This document shows positions 32,025 through 61,660 of a stretch of 64,000 nt of DNA, in pieces. Both the position numbers and the translations under genes were made by a program. Source of the stretch: Microthyrium microscopicum (lineage: Eukaryota); assembly GCA_010405405.1 (NCBI GenBank), contig MU004235.1:2348506-2412505 (forward strand), read 5' to 3'. How positions within the stretch are numbered: position 1 is the first letter of the stretch; every line of letters starts with the position of its first letter. The notes under the pieces were generated by a model that was not told where the DNA came from, searched no databases, and was given only the letters and a program-made list of their open reading frames with translations.

Positions 32025-34676
32025 ATGCACAATGTTGGCCCTTCCGAGCCCATAGTTGGACTAGAGGACATTTTCGAAGAAGTTGACAAAGGCGGACAGC
32101 GTACAGCTGATAGAACTGATCGAGCTCTTCCAGCCAACACGGACTATTATGCTGACCTCGCCAACAAAAATGTCAGTACTGGAATATTTTCGTTCTGGAA
32201 CGAGTCCAATAAGAGAATCTATATCTCTTTGTTGCTGTTAGGTGTTGTTGTGCCAGCTGTAGGCTTATTCGGCTATGCAGATTGGGTCATTCATGGTTGG
32301 TATCATCGAGATGAGGATGATGATCAGTACCAGTCATCAACGCGAACTGGAATCGTGATTGTTGGGCTTTGCGTTGTCTCAGTTGGCGTAACAATACTGG
32401 GCGTCTGCTTACTGAAGCTCTTCATCCCCTTTCTACTCCTGCTTCATTGCGTCTACGCCTACTTCCTCGCGCCTTCATGGGTCACCACATCTTTTACTCT
32501 GGAAGCAAAGGCAGCGACCAGCAGTGAGTGCAAGCTGTGCTCTCAATGCCGCACAATCACCGAAGATCCTCTGATTTCTGGATCGCCCTGGATGTTCACT
32601 AGGTCACACAGAATGTTTCCTCATCTCAGCTTCAATGACTTCGAAATATCCTCCGAGCTATGTCACCTATGTAGCCTGCTATTACATTCAGTACCCTTAC
32701 ACCAACGAGCGAAACAAACCTTTCCCGCAAATTCTGCTGGAAATCCAAGCTCAAAGACAGCCGTGCAGAGCAATCTTCATGTTAAGGTCTGGAAGGACAC
32801 TTTCTTAACCAAGAAATCAGAAATTCGCTTGCAGCTCTGTGGAAAGTCTTTGTCAAACGCTCCACCACTCAACATTGAATGGCTACAGAAGCATGGCGAC
32901 GTTGCTGATCACAACTGTACAATTGATCAGACCACAGACGGACCAGATGTTGTTTCTTGGGCAGGTGAAATGATCGACAAATGTATTGAGACACATTCTC
33001 ATTGCGAGAGTCAATTTGTCAAGCATGAAGAAAGAAGTTATCTCCCGAAGAGACTCATAGACTTGAAAGATTACAACACAGGCGTGGTGAAAATAGTCAC
33101 TACTGCATTACTACCTGCCATTGATTTACCAATTCAGTATCTGGCATTGAGTCATTGCTGGGGTGGAGCAAGTAGCACTATGCTGAAGCAAAACAACCTC
33201 GAGGAAGCCTCTTTTAAGAAGGAGAACCTACCAAAGAACTTCAGTGATGCAGCAGAGATATCTTGTAAGTTGAATGTCAGATTCTTGTGGATAGATTCGC
33301 TATGTATTGTCCAGGATGATCCCACTGAATGGGCAACTGAGTCTATCAGCATGGGTCTTGTCTATGCCAATGCGCACTGTGTGATATCTGCCACTGCATC
33401 CGATAATTCCTTCGGAGGCTGTTCCAGACCACGAGATCTGTTTCGAAATCATTGCGTAATTCGTAAGAAGAAACAGAGCCAAAGTAAACTATCAGTTCTT
33501 TGGAATCATCGCCTGATGAACGCCTTTGAGGAAAAGGTCGAATGCGCCCCTATCTCATTACGTGGATGGACTTTTCAAGAGCGTTACTTAGCTCGCCGGA
33601 CATTGCACTTTTGCTCTGGATGCGTGATATTCGAATGCAATCAGCTTCTTGCTTCCGACAATGATACTAATGAAATCAGCCAGCATTACAAGATACGCAG
33701 GGGCTTTCAGATTGATGGTACAACCCATATTTCTGCAGACCTTGAACATGTAGCACGCAAGGTACCACCAAAAATCAGGAGATCGCAGAGGTATCCCGTG
33801 TACCGGTTGAACAAAATGGGCCGTAGATAGCTCAAAGGCTACAGAAATAGGTATTATAACGCACCCAATGATGCTTACAAAATACAACAACAGGTGGTCA
33901 AGAGCCTCGCTGATCAATCTGCTCGCCTTGGCCTTCGCGGAACGTTTGATGTCCTCTGGCGCTATGCAGGTACCACTCTTACCGAGAGAATCGGATTCCA
34001 TAACTGCTGGTTTGAGTTGATTGAAAAGTACAGCAAGCGAGCATTGACAAAGCACCAAGACAAACTCATGGCCATATCAGGAATGGCAAGTTTCATACAG
34101 AACAACTCCGGTCTAACTTATAGCTCTGGGCTTTGGGAAGAAATTCTACCTTATAATCTACTCTGGAGCCTTTCTGGAGACCCCAAAGAAAGACCAGACC
34201 GTCCGGTGCCAAGTTGGTCATGGGCTTCTGTTGATTCAACAGTTGGTAGTCGCCTCAGAGAGACTGGTTCAACAGAAAGGAACCAATTCCAGCATGGATG
34301 GGCGATTCTTACGTCCTATATTGAAGAACCTACTCAAGTGATCAAACTGGATATTGTCAACAATATGGTGTTCAATTCCAAGATTATCATGAATTGCAAT
34401 TTATGGGATTTCCGACCTGACGGACTCAATGTCATATGGGACATCACATCTCCACCACTTAATGATTTGCTGTCTTTACCAGTACTATCATTATCAAATC
34501 CACATGTACATCCTCATGATTCCAAAGTGCAACTCCATGGACTTATACTACATCCTAAGGGGGGCACAACTTATGAGAGAGTCGGGTATTTTTGGACAAG
34601 GACCAAAGATGCTATTGATAGATTGTCGTCTGGAACATCTAAAGAATACGATAATTGCACGATTGTGCTAGAGTAG
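32025..34676 (+). CDS. HET-domain protein with N-terminal hydrophobic (TM) helices; in-frame TAG at 33828-33830 (intron or premature stop)
   Basis: PKRLIDL, YLALSHCWG, LPKNFSDA, FLWIDSLCIVQDD, MGLVYANA, RGWTFQER, YSKRALT..DKLMAISG and PSWSWAS motifs. ORFs 32025-33830 and 33894-34676 are in the same frame. Confidence 0.85.
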
Positions 34677-38260: not shown

Positions 38261-41200
38261 ATGTCGCGGAATCCTAACGAAAAGCTCAAAAATGAGGCGA
38301 TCGCGGAGATGGACAAGCATTTGCTAGGCCTTTACAGAAAGGATAGCTACTTCCCCAGCGAGAAACTTGATGACTTTGTCAACCACGATACCATCAAGCA
38401 CGCGTTGCCAAACGCCACTAATGTCTTGACCGATTGGTAAGATTCCACTTTGTCAAATTGCATTTGAAGAAGCCATCTGAAATATACCAACACCAGCGAT
38501 GGCTGCCAACGTGTTCGATGGCTCCCTCATAACATTCTTGATTAAGTGCTGTGGTGGCACCAGATGTATTGGCTTCTGCATCACGTTTTGGTTTGCACCG
38601 TTTTGAAGTGTACTAGCTTTGACTGAATCTTATACTGAGAGCTTTCAGGATAGTGAAACAAGCGCGGCGAACCTTTCTTATCACGTTGTTTGCTTTATCC
38701 GATCCCATCGACCTCTTTTGGGCAGTAAATTGTTTCCGGAAGCACGGGTTTGACGACTCCTGCTTGCCGATACAGAATATTACTGCCTCAGAGACTTTCA
38801 GCCAAAAAGCTCATTGTATACGAGATTGGGCAAATGACGAGTTCATGTCAGACTGCTTGCTTTGTGATGGCACCAGTAGCAGGACTTTGATTAACGAGGT
38901 GCAGTGCATTTGCAACCATAGTCAGCAATTGTATGCTTTTCACCATGAGTGCTGGAGTTTGAGTAGCGTCCGGTCTTTCTACCAAGAACAGTGGCACTTT
39001 TGCCTGCAAAGATTCGAGCTTGATGTGTTCGAACCTCGCAGCATTGAGGACGACCGAATACTACCCTTTGTCCTGAAAGATTCTGCAACGAGAAGGATCG
39101 GCGGCTTCAGCGAGGTAGTGCAAGCCTCAATACCCTCAGAGTTTGTGACGAACCATGCCTCTGAGGACATGAACTCGCGCAACCCAGGGCGCCTCGAAAT
39201 CGCCGTCAAGACCTTAAAACGCTTGCCCGATAGGTCTTACGACATCGAAGCTGAATGGAGAAGGGAAGCCATGGCCAACAAAAACATCAATTGTCTTGGG
39301 CATGCCAATATTGTGAAGTGCTTGGGCGCATTTCGCCAACGCGACGAGTATCACCTGGTGTTTGAGTGGGCAGACAGCGGCAGCTTGATAAACTACTGGG
39401 AACAAAATCGTCATCCCGAAGTGAACAGGTCAAATCTCAAAGAATTCCTGCTACAGCTACGCGGCATAGCAGATGCTCTTTATCAGATGCATAATACAGC
39501 AATTCCGCCCAGAGACACTCGACGGAGCCAAAAGGACAGTTACAATGATTCTGCGATTCCTGTCATCCAGATTGACCAAGAAACACATGGATTTCCTAGT
39601 ATTAACATTGATGCTTCCGAGCACTCCTTACATGGAAACGCGGGAGATGAAAACTGGCGACATGGTGACCTGAAGCCCGAAAACATTCTCGTTTTCTCTC
39701 CGATCGACCAGTGGCCGGGCACATGGAAGCTTGCAGATTTTGGCCGGGCGAAGCGGCATAAGGCTACAACAGCACAGCGTCAAGAAGTCACAGTCGAAAG
39801 ATGGGCCACGAGGCGATATGAACCACCTGATCTTATCATCGGCGACGGAAGTCGTAGCATATCACGACTCTACGACATTTGGTCCCTTGGATGCGTATTC
39901 TTTGAGGCTGTGATCTGGTTATTATATGGATACCAAGAAGTGGATGGCTTAGGCCGTACCACAGGCGGTATGTCAGTGGAAGAGTCACCATATTGGACTA
40001 GACGTGGTAGAGACGGTGCCACAGTCAGCCAGTTGATTAGTTTTTGGATGAGCAACATTCGGCGGAAAGATCCTGATTGTGCAGAAAATACGGCACTGGG
40101 TGATCTTTTAAGTCTGGTGCAAGCAAAAATGCTTGTCATTCAACTCCCCTCCGATTCTACGGAGAAGCCAGGGAGAGGTTATAGAGCCAATGTGCGAGAG
40201 ATTTTGAAAGATCTAGACCTCATCATACATAAGGCCGATGCCAACGAAACCTATCTATTGACAGGCCGTCCCCGGCACAACATAACGGCACCATCCTCAG
40301 GCAAAGAATTCCATCAGAATGCCCACCCAGTCGTCATCGATCCAATACCTGTAGAATCACCTCCGAGAAAGGCAAAGTCAATATATGAGGACTTGAGTAG
40401 AAATAGCCACGTTACAAGCCATCTAAACACCCAGGCCACGTACGATACGGTCACTCATATATCAGGAAGAGAGATCTCGTCTTCCGACAATGAAATCACG
40501 TTGACCTTACCCAGATGGAACAACTTCTCCCTGATAGCAACCCGCATGACAGAGGAGTACAGACACACTCTCGGGGAAACATGGTTCTACAATGACGATA
40601 ATGCGTTTGTCCAATGTTCTCTTGAAGCCATATTCAAGGATGCAACGGGGGGCCCAAATGACATCTTTCCACTTCAATCATCGCTTCTATGCAAAGAATG
40701 TTCGCAATTTGATCCAATTTGTCCAGAGTCCTATGGTAGGAGGCTAATGTCCCAAGTACGGGCGACAGCAAGGCGCTGCGAATTTTGCAAGTTGTTGGTT
40801 CAAGTTGCACAGAGAGCTGGCCTTCTAATGACCAATCCTCTGTACTTGAGGCGGCAAGGTGGCCTACTGAAAATAAATAATAGGAGTGATATGGCACTGC
40901 GGGTCTGTCGTTCGGCAGGTCAACGAAGTAATGGCACAAACTATTTGTTGAAATATCATACTAACATAACTTCAGTAGATTCTCAAGCGTACTCGACACC
41001 TGGTAATGAGCTTCCAGTTGGTTTACCAATACTTCCTTACCCAGGAGAGGAATTACACGCTCTAATTCTTCGCCAATGGTTGAATGAATGTGACCAGCAC
41101 GGATGTGTCCCAGAACAACCTCTGGGATACTGCCCCAAGAGATTGCTGTTCGTTGGTGACGAGCTTGGTCATCCAAAATGTAGAATTGTTGAAACCGAAA

Positions 41201-42629
41201 GTCTGGGCGACCAGCGGACTGATCTGAAATATATCGCACTCTCTCACCCGTGGGGAAAGCCGGAGGAGCACGAACATTTCAAAGCTACCAGACGTAATCT
41301 ACCGCTGCTACTGAACGATATCGATGTGAACGACCTTCCCGCCAACTTCTTAGACGCAATCACCGTCTGCATGGCAGTTGGAATAAGTTATTTATGGATC
41401 GATTCAATCTGCATCCTTCAGGCGGCCGACGGCGACGAAGGTGATTTCAGAGACGAAGCCGAACATATCCAAGACATATACAGCTCTGCATATTGTGTTA
41501 TTGCTGCGAGCAGCGCAGATGGTACATGCTCTGGTTTCCTGACTCCGAGAAATGAAGCACGACTCGTAACTCTGTCGCCCATCGCTACAGAAGGATCCCA
41601 ACGTGCGAGATTCTATGTCTCTGACCTCTTAGATGATTTTCAGACTGATGTTCTCAAAAGCCCACTGAGCGAGCGAGGATGGGTGCTGCAAGAACGAGCA
41701 CTTGCTCGTCGTACAATGTTCTTCACAGATAAGCAGACCTATTTCGAATGTGGGAAAGGCATACGTTGCGAAACCTTGAGTAAGCTCCAGAGGTAAGGCT
41801 ATCTCTGTGCTCCTTATTTCATAAACCAAGACTAATGAGTCATAGTGATGAAGCATCCTTCTTAGGAGATTCAAACTTTCCATCATATGGCACAAGAAAT
41901 ATGAAGATAGGAGCGCAGTTGTTTCTTATGACCTCTCTATTCGAGCAATACTCAGGATTGAAATTCACATTTCCTCCGGACAAACCAATCGCGATTTCTG
42001 GAATGGAGCAACAACTCACCAAAAACTTTGGAATTCGCAGCTGTGCTGGTGTCTTTGAGAATCACAGCGGCATGTGGCTCCTGTGGGAGCGCGCATCCAG
42101 CGTGGACAGAATATCACGTATTGTGTTCCCAGAGACAAACAATACAAGTACACCGCCCTCTTGGTCGTTTATGTCATACGAAGGGGCGGTCTCTTATATC
42201 GCACCGCCGAGCTATCAGATCTCATGGAATCGCATTCGCCTGACACTGCCTGGCGATGGAAAGACCTTATGGATGTATGCCCCAGAGAAGCCCGCAATGA
42301 CCGCCCGCATCCTTATGCTGGGAGTGGAAGAAGTAGAACAAGTGAAGTCGATCCTGAACAAAAAGTTGACCCATGCCGAGCGCTGTCAGGGCGATACATA
42401 CATCACATTTGACGATCCGAGAACGCTGACCTCGATACCTCATACGTATGTAATCTTGGGAACTTTCGGAAACACTGATGACCCAGCAGCTCGCCATTAT
42501 GTCCTAGCTGTTCAACTCACAGATCATCTTGCAGGGCGGCCAGTATACGAACGTGTTGGCGTTGGGTGGCTACCAAATTGGTTGCTGGATGCCACCGTGG
42601 AGTCCTTTGCGTTCTATTCGATATTGTGA
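38261..42629 (+). CDS. Protein kinase-HET domain fusion protein
   Basis: Exon 1 from ATG 38261. Kinase motifs GGFSEV, IAVK, HGDLKPEN, LADFG, RYEPP and DIWSLG. HET motifs PKRLL, YIALSHPWG, YLWIDSICILQ and RGWVLQER. The C-terminal exon after intron about 41793-41845 has YSGLKFT..DKPIAISG and PPSWSFMS. Confidence 0.88.
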
Positions 42630-45770: not shown

Positions 45771-46215
45771 TCATATTCTGCTTGTTTTCACTCCACTAAG
45801 CTGATTCTTCGTCTTCTCTGGAGGTGACCCAAATCTAGAATCATTATCCCCCAGCTCGGTATGTTCGTGTATCCGTAGTTCTAGCGTCTGTTAGCGTCTC
45901 GTTCCTACTCCAAGTGGAACATAGCCATACTGTATGTGTTCTCCTTGCCTTCTACTGCCATTCCTTGGAGAACGTTCTCCCGTAGAATCTTGGCCACTTC
46001 TTGCGCCTCTGCTATCTTTTCTGCGGCTTCAGGACTTCCGAGGGACAGACTTCGCGCCTCCTCGAAGCTAGCTCTTGCCTTTTGTCGCGATGCGATGAGT
46101 GTTCGTGGATCGCCTGCGAGAGTCAGCTTCTAGATCTGCGAACATTGAGAGCCAGCTCACCCTGAAAAGCGATCCGCGTCGACCTCAATAAGGTCCGATA
46201 CGCTGATAATGCCAT
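45771..46215 (-). CDS. MZM1: Mitochondrial zinc maintenance protein 1 (LYR-motif Rieske chaperone), 3 exons; only partly captured by the ORF track
   Basis: Manual splicing gives MALSAYRTLLRSTRIAFQG|DPRTLIASRQKARASFE...EVAKILRENVLQG...Y|KLRIHEHTELGDNDS...*. Introns are GTGAGC..CTGAC..CAG and GTATGG..CTAAC..TAG. Confidence 0.85.
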
Positions 46216-46396
46216 AGTTTGCTCTGCAATTGGCATCATCAGTCGTTGAAGCAAGCTCAAGAACTTTTTGCGCACGGACTTTATCCAGTCCCGATTCGGA
46301 TAAGCCTTGTTCCGCGTGCGAAACATTTTTAGATGGTCCCGCCAAAACTTTTCTGGCCCAAACATCCCACTTCTCTTTTAATTCCACAAACACAAC

Positions 46397-47783
46397 ATGG
46401 CTACGAAAGTACTTCCCTTGCCGGTATTACCGGCTGACTGGACTGCGCCAAAGGATTTCAAAGTCGTTGGAGCTCTATCGAAGCCTGTAACTCGTGAAAT
46501 CGAGGCTGTCGGGCCTCATTTCCTAGCTCATGCACGAAGAAAGCGTTATAAGCGCACATTCTCTGAGGATGAGCGGATCCAGGCTGCCGAAAATGTGAAG
46601 AAGGTCGAAGATGATGATAGCGCTGAAACCAGCGAGCCTGAGGATCCTGTTATGCTGAGTCGGGATGCCAAAGACTGGAAGGTATGTTACTGCCCCTGAA
46701 TCTGCTCGTCCGACAGAATGCTAATGCACAAAGTAGAACCAAGACCACTACGCCGTCTTAGGTATCACCAAATACCGCTGGAAAGCCACCGAAGAGCAAA
46801 TCAAGCGCGCTCACCGCAAGAAGGTCCTCAAACATCACCCCGATAAGAAGACCGCCGCGGGCGGCACCGACGATGACAACTTCTTCAAGTGCATCCAAAA
46901 AGCCACCGAAGTGCTTCTCGACCCTGTCCGACGTCGTCAATATGACTCTGTCGATGAGGGCGCCAACCGCGACCCACCTTCCAAGAAAGAGAGCCAAAAG
47001 GGCAACTTTTATAAGCTATGGTCGCCCGTGTTCGCCGCAGAAGGTCGCTTCAGTACCAAGCAGCCAGTTCCCAAGTTTGGCGATGAGAACAGCAGCAAGG
47101 CTGAAGTCGAGGAATTTTACAACTTCTTCTACAAGTTCGACTCTTGGCGTACATTCGAGTACCTCGACGAGGATGTCCCAGATGACAACGAAAGCCGTGA
47201 CCAAAAACGTCACGTCGAGCGCAAAAATAACAACGCTCGTAAAAAGCGCAAGACTGAAGACTCCGCGCGTCTACGGAAACTGCTAGACACCGCCCTCGAT
47301 CTCGACGAACGCATCCGAAAATTCAAACAGGCAGAGCATGCCCAAAAGAACAAGCGCCGTCTCGACAAGGAAGCCGAACAAAAACGTGCTGCGGAAGAAG
47401 CAGCGAAAAAGAAGGAAGAGGACGCAAAGGCTGCTGCTGAGAAGGAGATTGCAGACAAGGCGGCCAAGGCGGACTCGAAGAAGGCGAAGGAGGCGGCGAA
47501 GAATGCTGTCAAGAAGAACAAACGTGTTATTCGTGCAGCTGTTAAGTATGCCAACTATTTCCATGCGGCGGGTGCAGATGCGAGTGCTAGTCAGATTGAT
47601 GCTGCGTTGAATGATGTTGATGCCATGATTGCCGCTAGTGAGCCCGAGAGTATTGCCGCTTTGACTGCGAGGCTGAATGGCAAGAAGGATCCAGCTGAGA
47701 TCAAGGCTATCTTTGCTGATGAGGCTAAGAAGCTGGTGGACGATGGGAAGGTTAAAGCGGGCGATTTGAAAACTTGCACTTGA
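46397..47783 (+). CDS. ZUO1: Zuotin (ribosome-associated J-domain chaperone), 2 exons
   Basis: EAVGPHFLAHARR, RDAKDWK|NQDHYAVLG, HHPDK J motif, FDSWRTFEYLDEDVPDD and KNAVKKNKR. Confidence 0.96.
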
Positions 47784-48063
47784 GCGGTTTTTGGTTACGA
47801 ATAGATCTTAGAATCTGCCAATACCATTTCTTCTACTAGTAGTTATAGCCCAGCTAAAGCACTGAATATATTCGAGGTCTATGAACCGTACTCAGAGGTC
47901 ATTGCAGTAGGTCGCTTGGCTGATGTGTTGTATGCACTGTCTATTCTATTAATAGAACGTACTGATATCTTCAGCCTGAGCCATATTACTGTTGCCGCTT
48001 TCTGCCATCCTATCTTCTCCCTTTTGTATCATTCTGCTAAGTTTGCAATCGTCCGTCGATGCC

Positions 48064-48930
48064 ATGTGGCTTCTCAACGCTTCCTCTTTGAAGCTCGAAT
48101 ACTTTGCCTTTGATGACGGCGAGGCTCCTCCTTACGGCATACTTTCTCACACTTGGGCGCATCCGTCCACTGAACTTACTTTTGAAGACTTGCATTCCAG
48201 AGGCCATGCTGCCTTCAGCAAAAAGAAAGAATCATACCAGAAACTGATCGGCTGCTGCTCAGTGGCTCAAAAGCACGGCTTGCAGTGGGTTTGGCTTGAC
48301 AACTGTTGCATCGATAAGTCAGATCACGCTCAGCTCAGCTATGCCGTTAGCTCGATTTTTCAGTGGTATCAAAGAGCAGAGATATGCATCACGTATCTCA
48401 GCGACGTACACGCTATGAAGGACTTCCATCGAGCGAGGTGGTTCACACGCGGATGGACCTTACAAGAGCTTCTAGCTCCCACGAGACTCGTTTTCTTCAA
48501 CCGACACTGGGAACCTCTCGGAACACGACAAGCCCTCGCCTCCTTGATTTCTCACATTACAACCATACACCCAGAGTACTTGATGCGTTCCTGGTCACCA
48601 TCTACCAACTCTTTGAGACTGTTGTACGATGCAGTTCTTACGCGCCAGACGACGAAGCCGGAGGACCAGGCTTATTGTCTTCTCGGTCTGCTCGGCATCT
48701 ATATGGAGGTTGACTACGGAGAGGGCCTGAATAGCGCGTTTGAAAGACTTTACGCAACTGTGGAGCAATACAGTGGGCGCATACCCTCTACGGCCGACGG
48801 TCATGAGTACAGTGGCTTGAGTTTTACTACTGCACAATACGGGGACTTTGTGAGGTACAAGAATGATCATGCAGCCGAGGAATATGAGGACGAGGACGAC
48901 GAGGAAGTTGAAGGTGGAAGACGACGATGA
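48064..48930 (+). CDS. Short HET-domain protein (HET-E/D-type HET subfamily) with an acidic tail and no NACHT domain
   Basis: MWLLN..SLKLEYF, PPYGILSHTW, WVWLDNCCIDKS, FQWYQRAEIC..YLSDV, WFTRGWTLQELLAP, TTKPEDQAYCLLGL and YGEG motifs. Confidence 0.88.
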   Translation: MWLLNASSLKLEYFAFDDGEAPPYGILSHTWAHPSTELTFEDLHSRGHAAFSKKKESYQKLIGCCSVAQKHGLQWVWLDNCCIDKSDHAQLSYAVSSIFQWYQRAEICITYLSDVHAMKDFHRARWFTRGWTLQELLAPTRLVFFNRHWEPLGTRQALASLISHITTIHPEYLMRSWSPSTNSLRLLYDAVLTRQTTKPEDQAYCLLGLLGIYMEVDYGEGLNSAFERLYATVEQYSGRIPSTADGHEYSGLSFTTAQYGDFVRYKNDHAAEEYEDEDDEEVEGGRRR

Positions 48931-49442
48931 CGAGGAAGAAGACGAGGTGCAGGAGGAAGATGACAAAGTCAATGCCTTGCATGGTACACTGGTTTGCGAA
49001 ATGTGGTGCGCTCTCACCCTCCCCCTACTATGTGTAAATTGCTAGAATTTTTAGGATCCTACCAATCACACGTAGAATAGCCTGTGGACTTGGAGTATGT
49101 GAAACTCTGGTTATCAAGAGTACTATTTACTAACTAGGAATTTTAGTGCTGAATTTGATTGTTAGTATACCAAACGTTGGGTGGTTTGTTATATTCTTCT
49201 ACCAAAATCGTCACACTAAATCTTCTATATCGCTTTATAATTTGGAATACTTAATGTAATAGTTAAAAATAGTGCGCCTTTTCTACCTCCCAAAGCTATA
49301 GGCAGTTTTACGTGTGATTGGTGGAATTCTGTTAAAAGTAACATAGTAGGGGGAGGGTGAGCGCGCACCACATTTCGCAAACCAGTGTAGAACCAACCGC
49401 AGAATTGCCTGAAACAGCACCGCATAGTTTTCTACCTTCCAT

Positions 49443-49527
49443 TGATGAAGCTAAAAAGTTGGTGGAGGACGGGAAGGTTAAAGCCGGCGATTTAAAGACT
49501 TGCAATTCAGCGGTTGTTGCTGCCTAA
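49443..49527 (+). repeat. Diverged direct-repeat copy of the ZUO1 3' coding end (47717-47789)
   Basis: Encodes DEAKKLVEDGKVKAGDLKTCNSAVVAA* versus ZUO1 DEAKKLVDDGKVKAGDLKTCT*. Hand alignment gives 63 of 73 identical bases. Confidence 0.9.
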
Positions 49528-49787
49528 ACAGTCCTCGAATTTGTTGATGCAATTCTCTGATTGTGTCTTTTCATCAAAGTTTCATAACGACCACTAGATC
49601 TCCCCTTAGGTGTTGTAAGAATCTTAGGCCCTTTACATGTACCGTTGAGGGGAGCACATCTATCAAGATGGCAGTGTTCAGGGACAAACGGCAAAACCGC
49701 ATAGAAGTTTGTATCCATATGTTCGTAACTACAGTATCTCAAGACTTTAAAACTACATCGGCTCCAACCGTTCCCAGCGAGTAAGCT

Positions 49788-50105
49788 TCACCAGCCTCCG
49801 TCGAGTTCAGTAGATATCGGTTGATAGTTGATACCCTTATCTCCATTACCACATCCTTCAAAGTAGTCTATACTGACCATGCACCCATTTCCAAAGGTTT
49901 TAGTTCCGCACTGCTTGCAACCGCCCAGTGCTGGAGCGTGTATGTCTTGGTACGCGAGCCAGATCTCATCCCCAGTCATTTGGCAGCTATTGCCACCTTG
50001 GGCAAATGTTCCAGATGTCGCTCTGCCCGTGAGAAGAGTTTGACCAGAAATGACAGGCATCGATTGACTGTCTAAGCAAATAAATACCTGTGTAGCTATT
50101 GCCAT
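49788..50105 (-). pseudogene. KP4 killer-toxin-like Cys-rich domain fragment; 5' end lost or degenerate
   Basis: GNSCQMTGDEIWLAYQDI...GGCKQCGTKTFGNGCMVSIDY resembles the KP4-family C-terminal GCxxCG...GC..xY pattern. No signal-peptide exon is visible and the upstream sequence is TAG/TAA-rich. Confidence 0.55.
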
Positions 50106-50236
50106 TCATAAACTTAGCCTTAAGTACCACCTAGCTAGATCTCTAGGTACCTACCTAGCCTCTAGGTATGTAGCTCCTAATCTAAGTATCAGCATACTTG
50201 AATAGACAGGATTTCTTTCTTGGGATGACTCGCGCA

Positions 50237-51664
50237 TCATATATCCTTGCCATAATATCCTGAAGAGCCGAATAAAACTTCAGCCTTCACGCCATACTCA
50301 TGAGCTAAATACCCCAACTGCTGTCTGGCGTCCAGAGGCCAATCCATGTAGAATGGGTTCTCTGGATCTCCTACCAATGTAAATTGTATATCTCGAAGTG
50401 CGGAATTTGTCGCCGCGCCGTCTTGTAACCAGTCTGAGATTGAATCATAAAGTGCCCAGCCATCCCATTCGTCGAATTCTTGATCTGCCAGGTCGTCTGT
50501 CAAAACCAAAGTTTCAATATGATTCGGTACTACGAGTTTGAGAGGTAGTGCAGACTCTATTGACAAACTAGCAAATAGGAATTCTGGAGGAATTTTGAGA
50601 ACTGTTAGACGAGGAAGTGTTGTGAGACTTCGAAGCGTCCCATTCAGTCGAAGATTCGGGGCCTCTAGGTAACTTTCAATGTGCTGGACTTCAACTGCTA
50701 TCTCCAAATCCTGTAATGTATCTCTCACCTGTTCCAAAGCCGCACTCACTTTGTCGAGCTCAACCAACAGTGTATTTGTTGGCTGTATCGGATGCTTCCG
50801 TCTTCTCGTGTCGCAGAAGAACAGTGTCCATTTGAGATACTTTAGCTTTGGAGTCATACTTAGCAGACCAAGTAGGTGTGATTCCCGTACCAGGTGCAGA
50901 TCGAGCGATGTTAACATCGATGGATTAGACGTTGAAAGAATGGGCCAGTCTAAGCTTTCTGGATTGTCCAGAGAAATTGACAAACGAGTTATGCTTGATA
51001 AGCAAAAGAACGGTAGAGTATCTGCCGCTCCTTGGCCGCAAACACATCGGTACTGGGTAGCAAGTCGGCGGTATCTGCCGCGAATTTTATAGGTGACTTC
51101 GCTGAGATTTTGGAAAGCGGCCGGTCCACAGGTGCCTGGCACACACAGAGCGGCTCTCAGGAACAAACTAAGAACTTCACTCGTGAAGTATCTGGTACTG
51201 ATGACGAGATGCTTCAGACCATGAAGTTTCAGAAGTAGTAATGCAAGAAAAGCATCTCCTTCACCACCGAATAGCTGCTGAATCCACTGCTGGATAAAGG
51301 GAAGTCCAGACCCGCTGATGGTCTGGACCGCAAGAGAAAGATTGAACCCATCAACTGGAATTGATATAGGTATATGCTCTTCATGTAACCAGTCAAGAGA
51401 GTTGTCAGAGGAGAATTCCAAGCTTGAAATACAATTAGCCAACGCTGGTTTGCGAAGAACATTGTTCAGCAGAGAAATAACGCGTCGCCTTGTGTTTCTC
51501 GACCACATTAATTTTACTTTCGAGTAAAGAAAAGGTTCCGCGGTTTTGTTGAACGCCTTATCGACGAGACACAATGCATGGAAGTCTGCCTAAGACGTTA
51601 TATAACCACATATCAAATATGTGATATCGTATCCAAGACGGTCTTGCAAAGAAACGCGTTCCAT
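50237..51664 (-). pseudogene. F-box/LRR-like protein with a premature TAG at codon 25 (51590-51592)
   Basis: Reads MERVSLQDRLGYDITYLICGYITS*ADFHALCLVDKAFNKTAEPFLYSKV. The F-box-like N-terminus is in frame with ORF 50237-51574, and LRR-like segments follow (LKHLVI, ITRLSI, LTSLDL, LKYLKW, LQDLEI, LTVLKI). Confidence 0.75.
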
Positions 51665-52099
51665 CTTAAAGAGTTTAGTCCGTGGTGCATGATAGACAAT
51701 CAATCCACTACCGCAGAGAATTTTCAGGATGCAACATTAATTAGCCTCTTTTAGTTTAGTACAATAATAATTTTCATTAATTATAGATCATAGTACTACT
51801 CTTTATAATCATATATTAGTTTTACAAAAGGGACAATTATATCCTATAACTAGTACACTAAATTTAGTAACTTACTTAGCTATACTAAATTACTAGTAAA
51901 AGGGTAATATAAAGAGAAAAGCTATAGAAAAAGCTACTAATAAATTAAAGACTTTATAGCTTTAATTAAACTATAAATTTAACTATATATATAGAAAATA
52001 TATATAAATTACTAGTAAAAGAACTTAATTAACTAAAGATAATATAGTAAGAACTAATTCTAAGGCAAAATCTATTAATAAATACTAAAAAGGCTAACC

Positions 52100-54040
52100 T
52101 TTAAGTAAGGCAAAGTTGCTTTATTAAATATAAAAAAACTACTAAAGAATTTAGTAGTTAGAATAGTAAGATTAACTACTCTACCTTAAAAAAAAGAGCT
52201 TTTAAGATATATAATATTACTATATAGACTAAAATCCTAAAATAGATAATTTATAAATACTACGTCTTTTAGCTATATAAAAAGTAAATTTTATATTTAT
52301 ATCTAAAGCTTAGATACTTTAAAGATCTAGTAACTAGGCAATTATAATAATATATAACGTTTAAAGAAGTAAGTAACTACTTTTTAGTTAATAAATCTAT
52401 AATCTCTTATTAGTAGAAAAAGTAAGATAAGACTAAATTTATTACTAATAACTAGAGGAAGATAGAACTTAATATAGAACGAGAATACTTTCTAGACTTA
52501 AAATCTATAATCTATTACTAGTTTATTATTTAGCTTATAGAGAACTAAGAGATTTTATTTAGCTAGTTCTTTAGAAAGGCTACTTAATAATAGCCTCTAG
52601 TATATACTTCCCTTATAGTATTTAAATAAGCTATTCCTTAAAGACTTTACTTTTTAAGAAGCTAGCTTATAAGGTTTTAAAAACGCTATTAGATTTCTTA
52701 TTAAAAAATAACCTATATAGGCTAAAACTTTCCTTAAGATTAGAAATAATTTATTAATTATTTTATTTCTTTTTATTAGTAATACTATACTAGGTTAGTT
52801 ACTTCTATAAGCTATAAGGTAGAGATATATACCTAAATTCCTACTTATTTTATTATAAATAGTAATAAAACTCCTTACGTATATAAAACTATACCTAGCT
52901 ATACCTATTACTTAGTAGGATTAAATAATATATCTTATACTATTTCTAAAAGTAAATAAGAGAAACAATTAATAATAGTATATTTAAGAGTCTTTACTAA
53001 CGAGAAGATAGTTATAAAACTATTAATTATATTCTATAAATTACCTACTAAATATTACGGTTAAAACGAAGTTACTAAGAGATTTCTTTATAATAAATAC
53101 GTTATTATAAAGTTTAATAAAACTACCTAGATAAATTTATTCCTAATTATTCTATAGATTAAAGATTAATAAGTTCTTTATATAGATTCTAAGTAGTATT
53201 AACTTAAGTAAGAATAATATTACTAATAAGCTTAAGGTAAGAATACTTTTCTTTAAATTTATTTTTATTCTAACTTATCCTTTAGAACGTAGTATAAGCT
53301 TTAATTTTTAAGATAATAAAGCTTATACCTTTACTATTACTAAACTTATAAAGTTTAATAGTAGTCCTACTAGCTAAATTTACCTACTAATATAGCCTAT
53401 ACCTCCTTAGCTAATATTAAAGGTTATTATTAACTCTATAGCATTTTATATAACTAAAGAAGTTAAGGCTTACTATTATATATATAGTATTATTCTTATA
53501 GTTATTATCTCTAGACTAATAACTAAGATCTAACCTTTAGATATTAGTATTAACTAAGTTATTAAGAAGTACCTTTAGGAATATTAAGATAAAATTACTT
53601 TTAAAGCGTATCTAAATAAGGATTTTTATAATCTTATTATAAGTAAAAAACGTATTATTTTAACTAAAATAGTTACTTATATATAGAAAAAGGCTTATAC
53701 TTAGCAAACTTACTAAAAATATAATATTATAAAGTATTCTTTTACTTATATTAAAATTAATATTACTCTAGATAGCTTAGAAGATTATCTTATATTAGTA
53801 AAAGGAATAGCTACTAGTAATATTAATTTATTAGATTAGAGATTAATACTACTACTAAGAAATAATTCTAATAATTTAAATCCTTCTAAGAAAATAAAGA
53901 TTAAAAAAGAAAAAAGTATTCCTTTATTTTATGCTAACTAGGCTAATAAAGAAAAAGTTAATAATTACTTAAATTAATAAGAAAAAGAAGCTAATTCTTC
54001 TTCTAATTCTAAATCTAACTCTAAGTATATAGAATTAAAG
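52100..54040 (+). pseudogene. RIP-destroyed pogo/Tigger-type DDE_1 transposase with CENP-B-like HTH (boundaries approximate)
   Basis: Reverting TA to CA/TG restores ..SWL.RF.KRY.IS, N-G-D-E-T-P (52858-52875), FNETAWM, ID-S-V-A-F-H (about 53429-53449), IQPLDIGIN (53528-53554) and LDGSEDHLI.VKG. Frames are consistent across a 49-bp GTAAG..CTAAC..TAG intron at 53237-53285. Confidence 0.75.
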
Positions 54041-56647
54041 CCTTTATAATATATAGATTCTTCTATAGCTATAGCTCTAGTTTAGACTCTATTTTAGCTT
54101 CTATTTTAGCCTCTATTTTAGACTACTTATCCTTAATCTCTACTTCTATCTTAATTTTATTCTTCGTCTTAAAATTAATATTAGACTATTTATACTTAAT
54201 CTATTTTTACTTTTCTAACTTAGTATAAAGCTTAATTAACGAATTAAACTTAGAAAGAGTAGTACTAATCTATTCCTTAATATTAGAGTTAAGTAAACTT
54301 TAACTATTAGAATAGACTTTCTCTCCTTATAAATCACTATCCTCCTATTTAGGTTTTAAAAAAAAGCTATAGTAAGAAAAAAGATAATTAGTCTTAGAAA
54401 CTTAATCCTTCTTAGTAATAAAATCCTTAACTAGTAAGTTCTATTAATTAGGTAAAGTTTAATCTAAATCTTTAGCCTATTATAAAAGTTATTTAGAAGA
54501 GAGAACTAAGAGGACCTTATAAAAAGAAGGATCCTTAAGCTATAAAGATGCCTATAATAAAGAAGTTAATTATAAAGAAGCCTATTCTAAAAAAGTAATT
54601 AATAAAAGTAAAGAAATAGATTTTATATACTAATAACTACTACTAAAAGTTAGAGTTCTCTATACGTTAAGTCTTTTATCTTATCTTTATAAAGTATAAG
54701 AATCTTTTTTAGTTATCTATAGAATAACTTATATATTTACCTTTAAAGCTAGTTTAATTCGTTACTAATTATATTAATAAACCTATCTATAGTATACTAT
54801 ATCTCTATTTATAAAAGAAATTATAGAAAGTAATATATTATCTTAAAATAAACTTCTTTTATTAATAGTAGCTTTAAGAACTAAGTAATACTCTTCTCTA
54901 ACTAAGAAATTATATAAGAAGATATAATTATAAGTTATATCTAGTATATACTATTAATAAATTATTTTTTTAGTATAGCTAAGTATACCTATAAATAGTA
55001 CTATAAGATCCTATAGTCTATATTTTATAGTTTAACTACTAGTAAATCTATAAAGAATAATAGAAGATAGAGAGGCTAGGAAAGAAAAAGGAAAGAAAGA
55101 GCTAAGAAATAAGGTAAAGCTAAAGAGAATAGCTAAAGAAGAATAGCTAAAGAGGAATAGCTAAAGGAAAGCTAGGAGGAAATAGCTAAGGAAAAAGTAA
55201 AGATAAGAAATCTATAAAAAAGAAAGATATCTAAAAGCTATTTAAGATAATAATTAATAGTAAATCTAGTCTAGAATATAAAGCTTTAGAAATTAAAGGA
55301 GCATATATAATAATCTAGCATTTAAGAATCTAAGCCTAACCTAGATAGGCTAGTTACTTTAAGAGAGCTAATTAATAGTCTAGAAAATCTCTAGAGTTAA
55401 TAAACTCTACTAAAATCTAACTTTATCTACTATTACTAGCAATAGAAATTAGTTATATAGTTATTTTTATTAACTTTTTAACTTACTAAGGATATAAGAA
55501 TAATTTAAAGTAAGCATAGTATAACTATTCTTAAAGATATAAGTTAGCTTAAGCTATCTTAGGCTTTTATCTTATTCTATAAAGACTTATACCTTAGCCT
55601 ATTATACTAAATAAATTATTATTTAAGAAGAGCTTATTAAATTAATTCTAGAGTTAGTAAATATCTTAGTATACTTATATATAAGTCTTATTTATTATAA
55701 TACTCCTAAGTTAATATATATTATAGGTCCTAGATAGATTAAAGTAATAATTTATACCTAACTTATAAAAGAATTTAAAGTAGCAAAGTTTAAGAGTAAA
55801 AAGAAATAAAGGTACTTATAGCCTCTAAAATAATAATTATATAGTATTTATTACTAAGCTTAATAAAAAGGGCCTTTATATTATTAACTTCTACGCGTAA
55901 GACCTTAAGATTAGCTTTATTACTACTAATATAAAGTACTACGTAGTAGTAATAAATACTAAATAGATATATTATTAAAAGACTAGATATCTTTTTTCTC
56001 TAAGTATAATACTTCTCTTTTAGAAAGTAGCTTACCCTTATATTAAAACTAGCTTTACTTTATAGAAGATAAGTTAATAAGGAGCTTACTACTCTCCTAC
56101 TTAATCTATAAAAGCTTTTATATTAAAGATTAATATATTTACTAATAGGCTAAAAGCTATATAGACTAGTTCTTCTAATAATAATAATATATATTTATTA
56201 TCTATATATTTTTATTAAAAGGTACTTAATATAGAAAGTATATATCTAGTAACTAATAAGATAAATAAAAATAGATAATTAAACTATATTTCTTAAAAAA
56301 TAGGCTACTCTAATCCTTATTACTATTTTAGTAAAGATAAGTAAGATATTCTTATAAAAGCTATAAATAACGTCTAGTAACTACTTTAGCTCTAATTTAT
56401 TATCTTTTATAGTAAATATATATAAATTAGATTAATATACTACTTTATATACTATGCTGCCTTAATAACGCTTTTTATTTAATTTTAGCTTAGTATTATA
56501 TTCTATTAGTTTCTCTTATTTAGAAATATTTACCTATATTTTAATATAAAATAAATATTACCTAACATAAATAGAAAGGACTAAAATATAATTTATTAAA
56601 GTTCTACTTTATAAAATATATAAAGTTTATCTAAAACAAAGTATTTA

Positions 56648-57154
56648 CTATCTAAGTAGAACTAAACTACTTTAAACTATCTAAGTAGAACTAAACTACT
56701 TTAACCTTCTAATAGTTTTACTACTTNNNNNNNNNNNNNNNNNNNNNNNNNNNNNNNNNNNNNNNNNNNNNNNNNNNNNNNNNNNNNNNNNNNNNNNNNN
56801 NNNNNNNNNNNNNNNNNNNNNNNNNNNNNNNNNNNNNNNNNNNNNNNNNNNNNNNNNNNNNNNNNNCCTTCTAGCAGTTTTACTACTTACTTAGGTAGAC
56901 TAACTATCTAAGTAGAACTAAACTACTTTAAACTATCTAAGTAGAACTAAACTACTTTAACTTTCTAGTAGTTTTACTACTTACTTAGATAGACTAACTA
57001 TCTAAGTAGAACTAAACTACTTTAAACTATCTAAGTAGAACTAAACTACTTTAATCTTCTAGCAGTTTTACTACTTGCTTAGGTAGACTAACTATCTAAG
57101 TAGAACTAAACTACTTTATAAAACCTTCTAGTAGTTTTACTACTTACTTAGGTA
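56648..57154. repeat. Tandem array of a 94-bp unit (two copies of a roughly 29-bp subunit plus an imperfect inverted copy), interrupted by an assembly gap
   Basis: ctatctaagtagaactaaactactttaa repeated. Units start at 56867, 56961 and 57055. Confidence 0.9.
56727..56866. other. Assembly gap (140 N)
   Basis: Run of N inside the 94-bp tandem array. Confidence 1.
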
Positions 57155-57700
57155 GTAAATTAATATTTATTATATTATCTAATAATATAATAAAAAAAAT
57201 AGAATAAAGATAGATTAATTTAATAAAGAGAAAATAACTTTTTAATATAAAAAGTATTTTCTTAAAAATATATAAATATTCGTTTCTAAGCTACCCTAAA
57301 AGAGTAAACTAAGAAATATATTATATTCTTTACTAAAGACTTTAAAAGAGTTTTAGAAGTAATCTAGTAACTAATATTATTAGGCTAGCTAGATAGTAGA
57401 TTCTTATCTACTTCTTATATAAAGCTTTATAATTATACTAACTATAAGCTATATATAAAATCTAACTTAATAATAAACTATTCTAAACTTAGGTCTAATT
57501 TATAGTAACTAGTCTAGCTAATGCTAGATTTAGTAGAAATATATCTAATCTCTAAAAATTTAAGACTTAGTAAATATATTTCTAAACTATAGCTAAGAAT
57601 AGAATTTACTTAAGAATTAACTAGAATTACTATAAGAATTAGTAGGTATAATTACTAATCTTATAGAATCTAAGCTAAATTCTTATCTTTTTTATAAAGT

Positions 57701-58930
57701 AGCTAAAAATACAATTCCTTAAAGCCCTTATAGCTTAGAAATTAGCTATAGCAAAATACTAAAATGTGCTCCTACTACTATACATTCTACTATAAAGTAG
57801 CTTAGGACTTAAGAGCCTTAAGTCTATAAAGCTAGATTAATCTAGAACTAGCTTTAAATCTAGCTCTTTATATCTAAAAGGCTAGATTATCCTATAGTAG
57901 CTACTTAAGCTATTTAAATCTATAGTATTTAATACGTAATATTAAGATCTAGGAATTACTAGATCTTAATATTATAATTACGTACTATTACGTACTCTAT
58001 TACGTAATAATTACGTACTAGATTATATTATCTAACCCTTTATATTTTTAAAGAGCTAGATTATTTTATAGTAGCTAAAAATAATACATTTTTAGATAGT
58101 AGCTATTTTAGCTACTAATAGCTAATATTAGCTATTAGTAACTAATATTATAGCTACTATTAGCCTAAAATCCCCTTTTTAAAAAAGCTAAAAATACAAT
58201 CCCCTAAAGCCTTTATAGCTTAGGGATTAGCTATAGCGAAATACTAAAATATGCCCCTACTACTATACATTCTACTACAAAGTAGCTTAGGACTTAAGAG
58301 CCTTAAGTCCGTAGAGCTAGACCAATTTAGGACTAGCTTTAAATCTAGCCCTTTATATTCAAAGGGCTAGATTATCTTATAGTAGCTACTTAAGCTATTT
58401 AAATCTATAGTATTTAATACATAATATTAAGATCTAGGAATTACTAGATCTTAATATTGTAATTACGTACTATGTTACGTAATAGTTACGTGCTAGATTA
58501 CGTAATTTAGCCCTTTATATTTAAAGAGCTAGATTATCCTATAGTAGCTACTTAAGCTATTTAAATCTATAGTATTTAATACGTAATATTAAGATCTAAG
58601 AATTACTAGATCTTAATATTATAATTACGTACTAGATTACGTACTAGATTACGTTATCTAACTCTTTATATTTTTAAAGAGCTAGATTATCTTATAGTAG
58701 CTAAAAATAATACATTTTTAGATAGTAGCTATTTTAATTACTAATAGCTAATATTAGCTATTAGTAGCTAATATTATAACTAATATTAGGGGGACGCCCC
58801 TAATCCTCTTTATTAAATAGCTAAAAATACTATTTTTTAAAGCCCTTACAGCTTAGGGATTAGCTATAGCGAAATACTAAAATATGCCCCTACTACTATA
58901 TATTTTACTACGAACTAGCTTAGGATTTAA
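57701..58930. repeat. Long tandem repeat (copies start at about 57701, 58186 and 58819) with internal hairpins and palindromes
   Basis: agctaaaaatacaat..cctaaagccc.tatagcttag..attagctatagc.aaatactaaaat.tgc.cctactac recurs three times. It contains taatattaagatctag-gaatta-ctagatcttaatatta and the palindrome tactaatagctaatattagctattagta. Confidence 0.9.
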
Positions 58931-59369
58931 TACGCGTTATTTCCGTGTATATTATCTCCTTTAATTAGCGCCTATTTGTCCCTTTTAATTAGCATTGTCT
59001 CCTTCGTTAGTATTATCCCCTTCGCTCGTAGTACTATCCCTTTGTATCTTGCGCTATAGAAAGGACATATCTACCCGCAGGATCCCGCAGCCATTCCGTT
59101 CCCTTTTAGGTTAGATTGAGTCCGCTAGTACTAAAAAACGCCTCGCTCTTTAAGTGCACCTAAATATATAATTCTTAGTTGCTCTTAATAAAAATATATA
59201 TATATTAAAGCTGCTATTCTATATTACTAATCCTGAAATTTTAGTGTTAATTAAATAAGATTTAGGTAAGATACTTTATAGTAACGAACTTTAAAGATTT
59301 TAAGATCTAGATAGCTACGTGAGCTCTAATTTTCGTGTTTTTAGATCTCTAACACTAATCTTAGCGCTT

Positions 59370-61660
59370 ATAATAGAAGAAACTAACTTTACCTTTACTG
59401 TTACAACTATAGCTATAGATAGGCCCTTACCTAAAGAAGTAGCTCCTTCTAATCCTTAGATGTAGACAAACTTAATCGTCTTATTTCTAAATAAAAAGGA
59501 TGAAGAAATGCAATCTACCTAAGTACCTAAAGATTTAGTAATCTATGCTCCCTTGTCTAACGATATTAATCCGTAAGTACTTTATATCGCTAAGAAGGGT
59601 TAGAAGATAGTAGTTGTAGGGCGTGATTAGTCTAAATATACTACTCTACTTTAAGAAGACTACTAAAAGATACGCGTTCTTTATAAACCTTTTATAATTA
59701 TTAATTCCTTTATGTGTTTTATAAATATATACTTTATTAATACTAGAAACAATCTTATTAATATTAGACCGCTTCTAGAGGACTGTATATTATAACATTT
59801 TAAAGAGCTCTTTAAGTGATTTAATATACCGTATATCTTCTTTACTAAGCTGTAGAAAGATGAAGACTTTGAAATAATTATAATAAATACTAATTTTTAT
59901 ATATAAGAATAATTCTAAAGTAGTCCTCTTGATTCTTTACTAATTAAACCTATTTTAGTGCTTAAAATCTAAATATTTGTTACAATGTTAATTTATATAG
60001 GCTCTAAGCATTTAGTAGATATTAATATTATCTAGAGAACTAATACTTTAAAATCTTAATATGCAATCTAAATGTTTATAAGCAAAACACGATAGTAGAT
60101 TATTAAAAAATATATATACCTAAGTCTTCTAGATTATAGTAATCTAAATCTAATACCTGCGCAAAGAAAAGAAGTAGTTTTTATAAAGGTAGAGCCCTTA
60201 TTCTTAACTCTCTACGCTTGCTTTAAGGAATCCGTATATCCTACTAATTACGTCGCTATTAATAAGATAATAATATAATTTAAGGGTTAGTCCGTAGCTA
60301 TAATATAGCTAAAGGATAAACTAATTAATTACGAGTATAAAATACTAGGAATTAGCTTTTAGGGATATCTTTAAGACTTCCTTTATACTGTACCTAGTAG
60401 ATTCTTAGTAACTAACGAGATGCAAGATATTTCTACTTATAGGTATTCTTAGATACCTAAAAGCATAGATCCTAATTAGTATAAACTGTTAAATCTAAGC
60501 TTGCGTATAGTTCTTTAGATAGCGCTTACTTTATTGTTTAAAGAGCAAAAATAGTATATCTTTATAAATAACTTCTTTAGTAATATATGCCTGTTTGAAA
60601 TCTTATAGAATTATAATATCGGCGCTATAGAAACTGCGCGTCCTACCTCTATAGAGTATCCTTTATAACATATAGATTTAAAGAAGGTAGGAAACACGTA
60701 GGATTAGAGTAGAATTAAAGCTTTAGTAGTTTGTAGAGTACTTAGTATTATTTAGTACGATTGAGTACTTGTTTGATTCTAAACGACCTGTTTTGATACT
60801 AAAGAGACTACAATTGCTATACGTTATAAACTATATGCTAGTACTAAGAGAGATAAAGACTAGATCTAACGAATTTAGGGTAATAAAGGCATTAAGAAGC
60901 TCTTATAGCTTGCCGTCGTAATTCTGTATAATATTTATATAGGTATAATTGATTAGGCTAACTAGCGGCGCTCTTACTATACATACTATTATATAGGTAA
61001 GTAATTTTAATATTCTTTTAGATTAGAAGGACGATTTTATTATTTTAACTCTAATTGTTTAAAAACCTATACTATTTAATTCGTTTTATTAAGAGTTATC
61101 TCCTTATATAAGTTTTAGGTATTAAAAATTAGTTACTAATTTTCTATTAGCTTATTAACGTTACTATTATAAATGTATATATTTTAGTATTATAAACACT
61201 TTAGGCTAAGCTTCCTAGAGAAGCTTAAGATATATATAGATATACTAACTATTTATATTCTTATATATTTTATAACTATTTAGTATAGTGTTTGTACCTA
61301 AAGGCATTTAATTAGATACACGAAGTTAAGAGGATTATAATAATATTTAATTTACGTAAAAATGTTGTATTGCTATTAGTTAGGCAAATAATTAGTATAA
61401 AACGTTAATATAGAGGTGAATCGCTACCTATAGATTAATTCTTCTTAGGACTTTACGTAATAGTATATCTACCTTATAAATAGCGACAATACTACTAGTA
61501 TTATACGTAGAAGAAGCTTAATACTAGTTGTACTAATAAAGCAAGAAAGATAGGATTTTGCTGTTTTTAGTATAGTAATAATTTACCTCTTTATTACTAG
61601 TGCTTTTATGAATTCTATTAGGATTATAAGTACAGAGATCTCTAGCGTTTAAGGTTAAAT
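59370..61660 (+). pseudogene. RIP-degraded piggyBac-type transposase (DDE_Tnp_1_7-like) with C-terminal Cys-rich domain
   Basis: One frame gives VAI(D)(E)(M)(M)I.FKG(R)S...KDK(P)I...YK at 60252, IF(M)(D)NFFSN..LFEIL..YNIGA..TAR at 60558, and LYN..(M)G.ID.A(D).RR.YY at about 60925-60980. After a GTAAGT donor at about 60997 comes CCF.(C)..NLPL(C)..CF.EF(H) at about 61555-61620. Confidence 0.8.

Follow-up and report, generated by a model that had tools for sequence, protein, structure and literature searches.

A diverged second copy of the ZUO1 gene end beyond a HET-domain gene in Microthyrium microscopicum as a possible relic of recombination

Partial or displaced gene sequences have been described at fungal recognition loci, and three accounts are of direct relevance to the present study. 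In Grosmannia and Ophiostoma, a truncated MAT1-1-1 gene inside the MAT1-2 idiomorph is a relic of unequal recombination between the idiomorphs of the mating-type (MAT) locus (PMC3583454); at the MAT locus of Valsa mali, the housekeeping flanks COX13 and APN2 have been drawn into the idiomorphs and are diverging there (PMC5386874); and at un-24/het-6 of Neurospora crassa, the C-termini of UN-24 (~120 aa) are strikingly different, evolve under diversifying selection and carry specificity (PMC3618301). Here we analyze a 64-kb stretch of DNA (hereafter the window; contig MU004235.1 of assembly GCA_010405405.1) from the leaf-litter fungus Microthyrium microscopicum, in which the zuotin gene ZUO1 is followed by a HET-domain gene, a miniature inverted-repeat transposable element (MITE) and a second, diverged copy of the ZUO1 end (copy 2, as opposed to copy 1 within the gene; Table 1). 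All coordinates are positions within this window, and the analysis covers one genome of one strain. We interpret the locus as a possible recombination junction at an accessory gene of the recognition type, marked by the relic of a gene end. From the pattern of its substitutions, copy 2 probably served as a functional zuotin terminus during the greater part of its divergence from copy 1 and was inactivated recently.

By analogy, the closest parallels are the idiomorph recombination relics (PMC3583454) and the housekeeping flanks inside idiomorphs (PMC5386874). As in Grosmannia/Ophiostoma, a partial gene from the "other" haplotype would lie next to the resident genes of a non-homologous recognition-type locus as the product of a rare unequal or illegitimate crossover between haplotypes of long divergence; there, however, both haplotypes are seen in populations and the relic is that of a mating-type gene (PMC3583454), whereas here a single genome carries a housekeeping gene end at a non-MAT locus. 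As in Valsa mali, housekeeping sequence lies by a recognition locus, and two diverged functional versions of it would give mostly silent divergence; in contrast to the 22-codon end found here, that account describes whole genes, with both versions present in living isolates and with no HET gene involved (PMC5386874).

Table 1. Features of the ZUO1-HET locus (UTR, untranslated region; ORF, open reading frame).
Feature	Position	Strand	Details
ZUO1 (zuotin) gene	46397..47783	+	exon 1 46397-46681, intron 46682-46736, exon 2 46737-47783
Repeat copy 1	47717..47828	+	last 22 ZUO1 codons including stop (47718-47783) and ~45 nt of 3' UTR
HET-domain gene	48064..48930	+	288 aa, intronless, Pfam PF06985
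MITE	48985..49389	.	span with TA; element 48987-49387 (401 bp); TA duplications 48985-48986 and 49388-49389
MITE intron	49095..49146	+	52 nt, GT..AG; RNA joint 49094>49147 in X5
Repeat copy 2	49443..49554	+	21 sense codons 49444-49506, former stop TCA 49507-49509, TAA 49525-49527
MU117-like ORF	49788-50105	-	one of two minus-strand ORFs
423-aa ORF	downstream of ZUO1	-	no family hit

The product of ZUO1 is a 443-aa protein terminated by TGA (47781-47783), which combines in one polypeptide the J domain, zuotin homology domain and RAC-head that characterize zuotins (Pfam matches of exon 2, all above cut-offs: DnaJ 2e-18, ZUO1-like_ZHD 7e-43, RAC_head 7e-29). Exon 2 is 100% identical to a 443-aa M. 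microscopicum protein named zuotin (P0001), whose cluster has one member; the next most similar zuotin among the collected proteins has 77% identity. The end of this gene recurs downstream as a 112-nt repeat pair at 76% identity (repeat family D2). A sequence-only reading of this DNA had described 49443-49515 as a repeat of the last 73 bp around the ZUO1 stop with 10 mismatches, and gapless alignment with 47717-47789 gives exactly this number, all of them inside the 66 coding bases (47718-47783 and 49444-49509) and comprising 6 transitions and 4 transversions; the longest exact run common to both copies is 14 nt. Checked codon by codon, the substitutions are also those it had listed: seven are synonymous (six third-position changes and one CTG/TTG), and the other three are D>E (GAC/GAG), T>N (ACT/AAT) and stop>Ser (TGA/TCA), with copy 2 reading through the lost stop to a TAA as ...KTCNSAVVAA*. 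The match stands far apart from the background of the window: a 67-nt core scores 57/67 at 49443 and 36/67 at the next best site on either strand (mean 16.8, sd 3.7). Besides the gene, tblastn finds ZUO1-like sequence in the window at copy 2 alone (E = 2e-6, identity at 19/20 residues), and no further ZUO1 fragments were found in these 64 kb (best E after the gene and copy 2, 2.2). The left edge of the repeat is sharp (22% identity over 47600-47716), while on the right a UTR-like part of copy 2 extends to ~49554; taken in register with the coding repeat, the copy 1 UTR (47784-47828) is identical to it at 28/45 positions (P = 1.8e-6 at a 28% background), compared with a mean of 11.8/45 and a maximum of 22 among 380 windows at the same offset.

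The silent character of this divergence carries the argument. There are 7 differences at 13 synonymous sites vs. 2 at 50 non-synonymous sites, which corresponds to a free omega of 0.045; a likelihood-ratio test rejects omega = 0.5 (p = 0.0014), a value of at least 0.5 being expected if one copy had been neutral throughout. In simulations with copy 1 constrained and copy 2 neutral, two or fewer replacements among nine differences appeared in 0.16-2.7% of runs (P = 0.0016, 0.008, 0.0135 and ~0.026 at kappa 1, 2, 4 and 8, respectively), as opposed to 60-77% of runs with both copies constrained. A three-class likelihood (synonymous, non-synonymous and UTR sites, the last with 17/45 differences) yielded a log-likelihood (lnL) of -11.18 with one copy neutral vs. 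-4.92 with both constrained, favoring the latter by 6.3 lnL units at an equal number of parameters. The fitted values are a synonymous distance of ~0.9 between the two ends, an omega of ~0.04 and 2-3 unconstrained changes. Thus, simulations, likelihood-ratio test and three-class likelihood all bear out the earlier remark that mostly silent divergence is unlike that of a neutral duplicate. Repeat-induced point mutation (RIP) was considered as a source of the mismatches and rejected: one of the four G:C>A:T transitions (copy 2 relative to copy 1) is in a TpG/CpA context, and 4 of the 10 mismatches are transversions.

For comparison we used the protein ends of 119 zuotin relatives and 80 related ZUO1 loci from metagenomes with flanks of up to 8 kb per side, all of these loci being distant from M. 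microscopicum (the best has a 79%-identical best segment). The protein tails of copies 1 and 2 are identical at 19 of 21 residues, while the best relative shares 15/21 residues with copy 2 and most share 8-11/21; the two tails therefore have lineage-specific residues in common, which points to a Microthyrium-type lineage as the source. The extended end ...NSAVVAA occurs in none of the 119 relatives, which all terminate 0-3 residues beyond the K-[ST]-x motif, and copy 2 reads 7 residues beyond the copy 1 stop (Ser + SAVVAA). Hence, of the earlier proposal that both versions had been functional ends, the constraint on both is favored by our tests, but ...NSAVVAA as a working end is not, and the TCA of copy 2 most plausibly marks a stop that was lost once the copy had become inactive rather than the end of a working allele. 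The relative nearest to copy 2 (P0093, 15/21) ends in ...LVEGGKAKEGDLKTLN*, having both the E and the terminal N of copy 2 and a stop immediately behind this N; at most, this hints that E and N could be ancestral and that the stop of copy 2 may originally have been at the position of the copy 1 stop. Polarity by the whole set of 119 relatives is uninformative (94 equidistant, 15 nearer copy 1, 10 nearer copy 2). A HET-domain gene tightly linked to an essential housekeeping gene with two C-terminal forms is an arrangement shared with un-24/het-6 (PMC3618301); unlike the UN-24 termini, however, the tails compared here are 19/21 identical, with 7 silent vs. 2 replacement differences, and show no hypervariable C-terminus. 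The suggestion of an allorecognition-type locus in the sequence-only reading loses ground for the same kind of reason, as tails that differ at 2/21 residues are unlike allorecognition specificities.

Read data were available as runs X1-X4, representing one sample, and contigs of X1 and X2 (DNA) and of X5 were compared with the window; X5 was treated as RNA because its contigs skip GT..AG introns, and the 55-nt GT..AG intron of ZUO1 is spliced out in one of them. The DNA contigs of the two runs show 0 differences to the window over 45800-49011 and 49300-50400, and nothing in them on either side of the MITE points to a second haplotype or to a merged assembly, the artefact that had been named as a possible objection. 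ZUO1 today terminates at copy 1. The X5 contig of ZUO1 stops at 47736, 20 nt into copy 1, followed by 3 letters foreign to the window; X5 cover is absent over 47737-48040, and the HET contig begins at 48041. This hole may result from tip-clipping during contig assembly and is no evidence on the ZUO1 3' end. Splicing across 47737-48040 was rejected, as such an intron would have GT..AA or TG..AG boundaries and ZUO1 letters are absent from the HET contig. An alternative terminal exon, which had been proposed as a check in RNA, was likewise rejected, with none of the 7 listed RNA joints connecting ZUO1 to copy 2; the nearest candidate donor (47638) and the acceptor at 49426-49427 differ in phase, and the RNA contig runs unspliced through 47638. 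The RNA cover of copy 2 itself comes from a spliced contig that extends without a break from the right half of the MITE (0 differences to the window over 49147-49547). This transcript is of the plus strand, lies downstream of HET and runs out of the MITE; it probably represents a HET 3' UTR or read-through. The depths of the X5 contigs and the contig end at 49547 say nothing on expression level or RNA ends.

The gene between the two copies belongs to the HET-domain family, with conserved motifs and a PF06985 score of 43 bits vs. a cut-off of 22.5 over profile positions 1-89 of 146; its product shares all 58 invariant columns of an alignment with 7 relatives, and 7998 of the 8000 scored candidates match at E <= 1e-5. 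The best relatives are 39-48% identical, and one same-species paralogue is 41% identical. The RNA contig 48041-49006 has 0 differences and 0 gaps relative to the window; the gene thus lacks introns and has RNA cover. Its acidic C-terminal tail (48863-48986) shifts frame: frame 1 meets its stop at 48930, while the acidic run goes on in the +1 frame to 48985, into the MITE. This change of frame is no sequencing or assembly error, because the RNA contig has identical letters, and is either a real frameshift or the natural end of the protein. Two more HET-domain ORFs (Pfam) are present in the window, at 32025-33830 (601 aa) and at 38845-41796 (983 aa, protein kinase with a C-terminal HET domain); the three HET genes lie within 17 kb, interspersed among conserved housekeeping genes.

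The MITE has terminal inverted repeats (TIRs) of ~47 nt (49-nt arms including TA, 98% complementary; inverted repeat I1), and this TIR pattern is found at two sites only within the window. Diverged copies (3-14 differences) with differing flanks from 48981-48985 are present in the X1 and X2 DNA contigs. With its TIRs, TA duplications, small size and diverged copies it is a TA-flanked MITE, which we take to be of the Tc1/mariner-derived type. The MITE inserted after the HET segment was already in place and makes up a quarter of the ~1.7-kb "cassette" of the sequence-only reading; the original insert was therefore ~1.2 kb (47829-48984 plus 49390-49442). Its 49095-49146 intron starts with GTATGT and has CTAAC 12 nt before the AG. 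A second intron of 49 nt at ~49006-49054, with 28 letters on its shorter side, may come from other MITE copies. A mobile element with built-in introns brings to mind the introner-like elements of Dothideomycetes.

Taking these observations together, we tentatively favor, with somewhat less than even confidence, recombination that was homologous within ZUO1 and illegitimate on the right, the partner being a diverged ZUO1-HET haplotype or species. Before the event, both ends would have long been diverging as working protein ends. A segment of a ZUO1-bearing chromosome that had diverged, in an old alternative haplotype or in a related species with HET downstream of ZUO1, would then have recombined into the locus through a homologous and now invisible left crossover inside or upstream of ZUO1 and an illegitimate right junction at 49442/49443. 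The incoming segment would have brought its own ZUO1 end (copy 1, now used) together with the intronless HET-domain gene, and the resident end (copy 2) would have been displaced by ~1.3 kb, a distance grown to 1.7 kb with the later MITE insertion. Thereafter, few unconstrained changes would have accumulated in the relic (T>N, loss of the stop and perhaps D/E), their small number making the event recent relative to the split of the ends. The repeat, substitutions, gene identities, MITE and RNA cover are directly observed; what we infer from them is that the incoming DNA was foreign or allelic, how it recombined and in which order the events took place.

The surroundings of the gene lend this view some support. 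The upstream neighbor SLT11 lies beside ZUO1 in 28 of the 80 related loci, while no homologue of HET, MU117 or the 423-aa ORF was found in the flanks of any of the 80; this synteny boundary at the ZUO1 end supports the recombination reading. Downstream synteny is poor among the relatives themselves (a neighbor common to 9, 6 and 3 of 33 loci), and a single locus (L059) matches any part of the window, at 42.9-44.1 kb, upstream of ZUO1.

Several points weigh against a recombinational origin. A synonymous distance of ~0.9 is very old for within-species haplotypes, and no donor, empty-site allele or close relative was found in the collections searched. The HET protein is without a close relative (at most 48% identity) and hence bears no mark of foreign origin. 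The whole case comprises 9-10 substitutions in one genome, evaluated by simple models, and the nominal P values overstate the evidence because the finding was selected for its silent pattern. When the UTR regions are aligned freely rather than in register, the local alignment score is 23 vs. 22.8 for the shuffle null, which is not above chance; since the free alignment is no better than shuffles, the UTR homology depends on its register with the coding repeat, and the three-class likelihood makes use of this homology. Finally, the repeated MITE is bridged by no single Logan DNA contig, and the linkage of HET to copy 2 therefore rests on the window assembly and partial RNA contigs.

The most substantial competitor, although on balance unlikely in our judgement, is a duplication in situ, in which 80-112 nt of the ZUO1 end were copied at the insertion of HET (as a long target duplication or by staggered-break repair) and decayed neutrally, the silent excess being a matter of chance. 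It offers the simplest structure, with equal-length direct repeats exactly flanking the insert 47829-49442; the lost stop and T>N in copy 2 are as in a dead copy, the extended end is known from none of the 119 relatives, and after multiple looks at a finding selected for its pattern a P of ~0.01 is weak. What speaks against it is the substitution pattern (simulation P 0.0016-0.027, likelihood-ratio p = 0.0014, three-class lnL worse by 6.3) and the structure of the insert ends: neither TIRs nor long terminal repeats are present at 47829 and 49442, no repeat pairs of any transposon termini lie just inside the direct repeats, and no poly(A) remnant precedes 49443. A target duplication of 112 nt matches no transposon class known to us. 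Constraint on both tails could be accounted for without foreign DNA if copy 2 were the remnant of a tandem ZUO1 paralogue, both genes having long worked and the downstream one having been lost save for its last 66 coding bases and UTR, with HET lying within its body or substituted for it. The abrupt left edge at 49443 would fit a deletion or insertion breakpoint; we nevertheless regard this history as improbable, given that no other ZUO1 fragment is left in the window, that no second ZUO1 was detected in the flanks of the 80 loci (81 high-scoring segment pairs in 80 loci), and that none of 66 related loci has a duplicate of its own tail (best 38/66). RIP works against long survival of 1.4-kb duplicates, and the adjoining RIP-like DNA would make such survival unlikely here.

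A very small probability attaches to co-option, by which copy 2 would have been kept as a coding part of another gene, e.g., as a former C-terminal exon of HET that became non-coding after the MITE insertion and a frameshift. The copy 2 frame is indeed open for 46 codons from the MITE edge, copy 2 is in a spliced plus-strand transcript downstream of HET, and the acidic HET tail has its +1 frame change; however, with the MITE removed the copy 2 frame fits neither HET frame and is closed by a stop 27 codons upstream, no splicing is seen in the RNA contig 48041-49006, and a zuotin-like end is found in none of the aligned HET relatives. Least probable of all, and to our minds scarcely credible, is a site-specific integrative cassette, a small non-autonomous element targeting the ZUO1 3' end and bringing a replacement for it. 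Bacterial integrative elements (e.g., at tRNA genes) carry such replacement 3' ends for their target genes, and the sequence-only reading had drawn this comparison. The order of gene body, element-borne end, cargo and displaced native end as a direct repeat is the same, matching a layout of attL, cargo and attR with the target gene restored, but the resemblance ends there: at this eukaryotic nuclear locus there are no element termini, the insert has no recombinase or integrase ORF (of its ORFs, HET alone has a family match), an identical attachment core is lacking at a longest exact run of 14 nt, no tRNA genes are present at 40-64 kb, and the arrangement recurs at 0/66 related loci. Rather improbable as well, though above these last two, is an idiomorph-like allorecognition haplotype at ZUO1-HET that would reach into the end of an essential gene, with ancient +HET and -HET classes, each of which would long have kept its own working zuotin end, and with a recombinant bearing both ends here, or else a small HET cassette moving between lineages with a replacement end for the gene at which it lands, as a eukaryotic equivalent of the bacterial integrative elements. 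As a whole, the earlier reading is thus partly supported.

Should the favored recombination with a diverged haplotype or species be correct, the 66-base relic would record that a HET haplotype, from a source as diverged as another species, entered or recombined where an essential gene of otherwise conserved synteny ends. It would be a trace, open to dating, either of introgression or of a balanced haplotype of ancient origin at a fungal locus of the non-self-recognition type. More generally, the silent/replacement pattern of a gene fragment can tell local duplication with decay from arrival in an already diverged state. If a local duplication was all that occurred, the locus would represent ordinary structural variation beside a transposon-rich, RIP-mutated region.

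This region is an AT-rich island of 10 kb (51800-62000) with a G+C content of ~20%, which starts ~2.3-2.5 kb past copy 2 and has RIP-like indices (TpA/ApT 1.67, (CpA+TpG)/(ApC+GpT) 0.19). A further run, X6, labelled as another organism, includes three small contigs, low in depth and identical to the window (45882-46161, 47170-47356 and 48522-48853), which are therefore regarded as a trace of Microthyrium DNA in that data set; it also has a distant ZUO1 that is that organism's own (79-84% identical in three patches, with the match ending at 47633), and the run was judged uninformative. Between SLT11 and ZUO1, a small unannotated gene is present on the minus strand at 45850-46340, where RNA contigs skip two short introns at ~45881-45930 and ~46113-46160 (CT..AC, i.e., minus-strand GT..AG).

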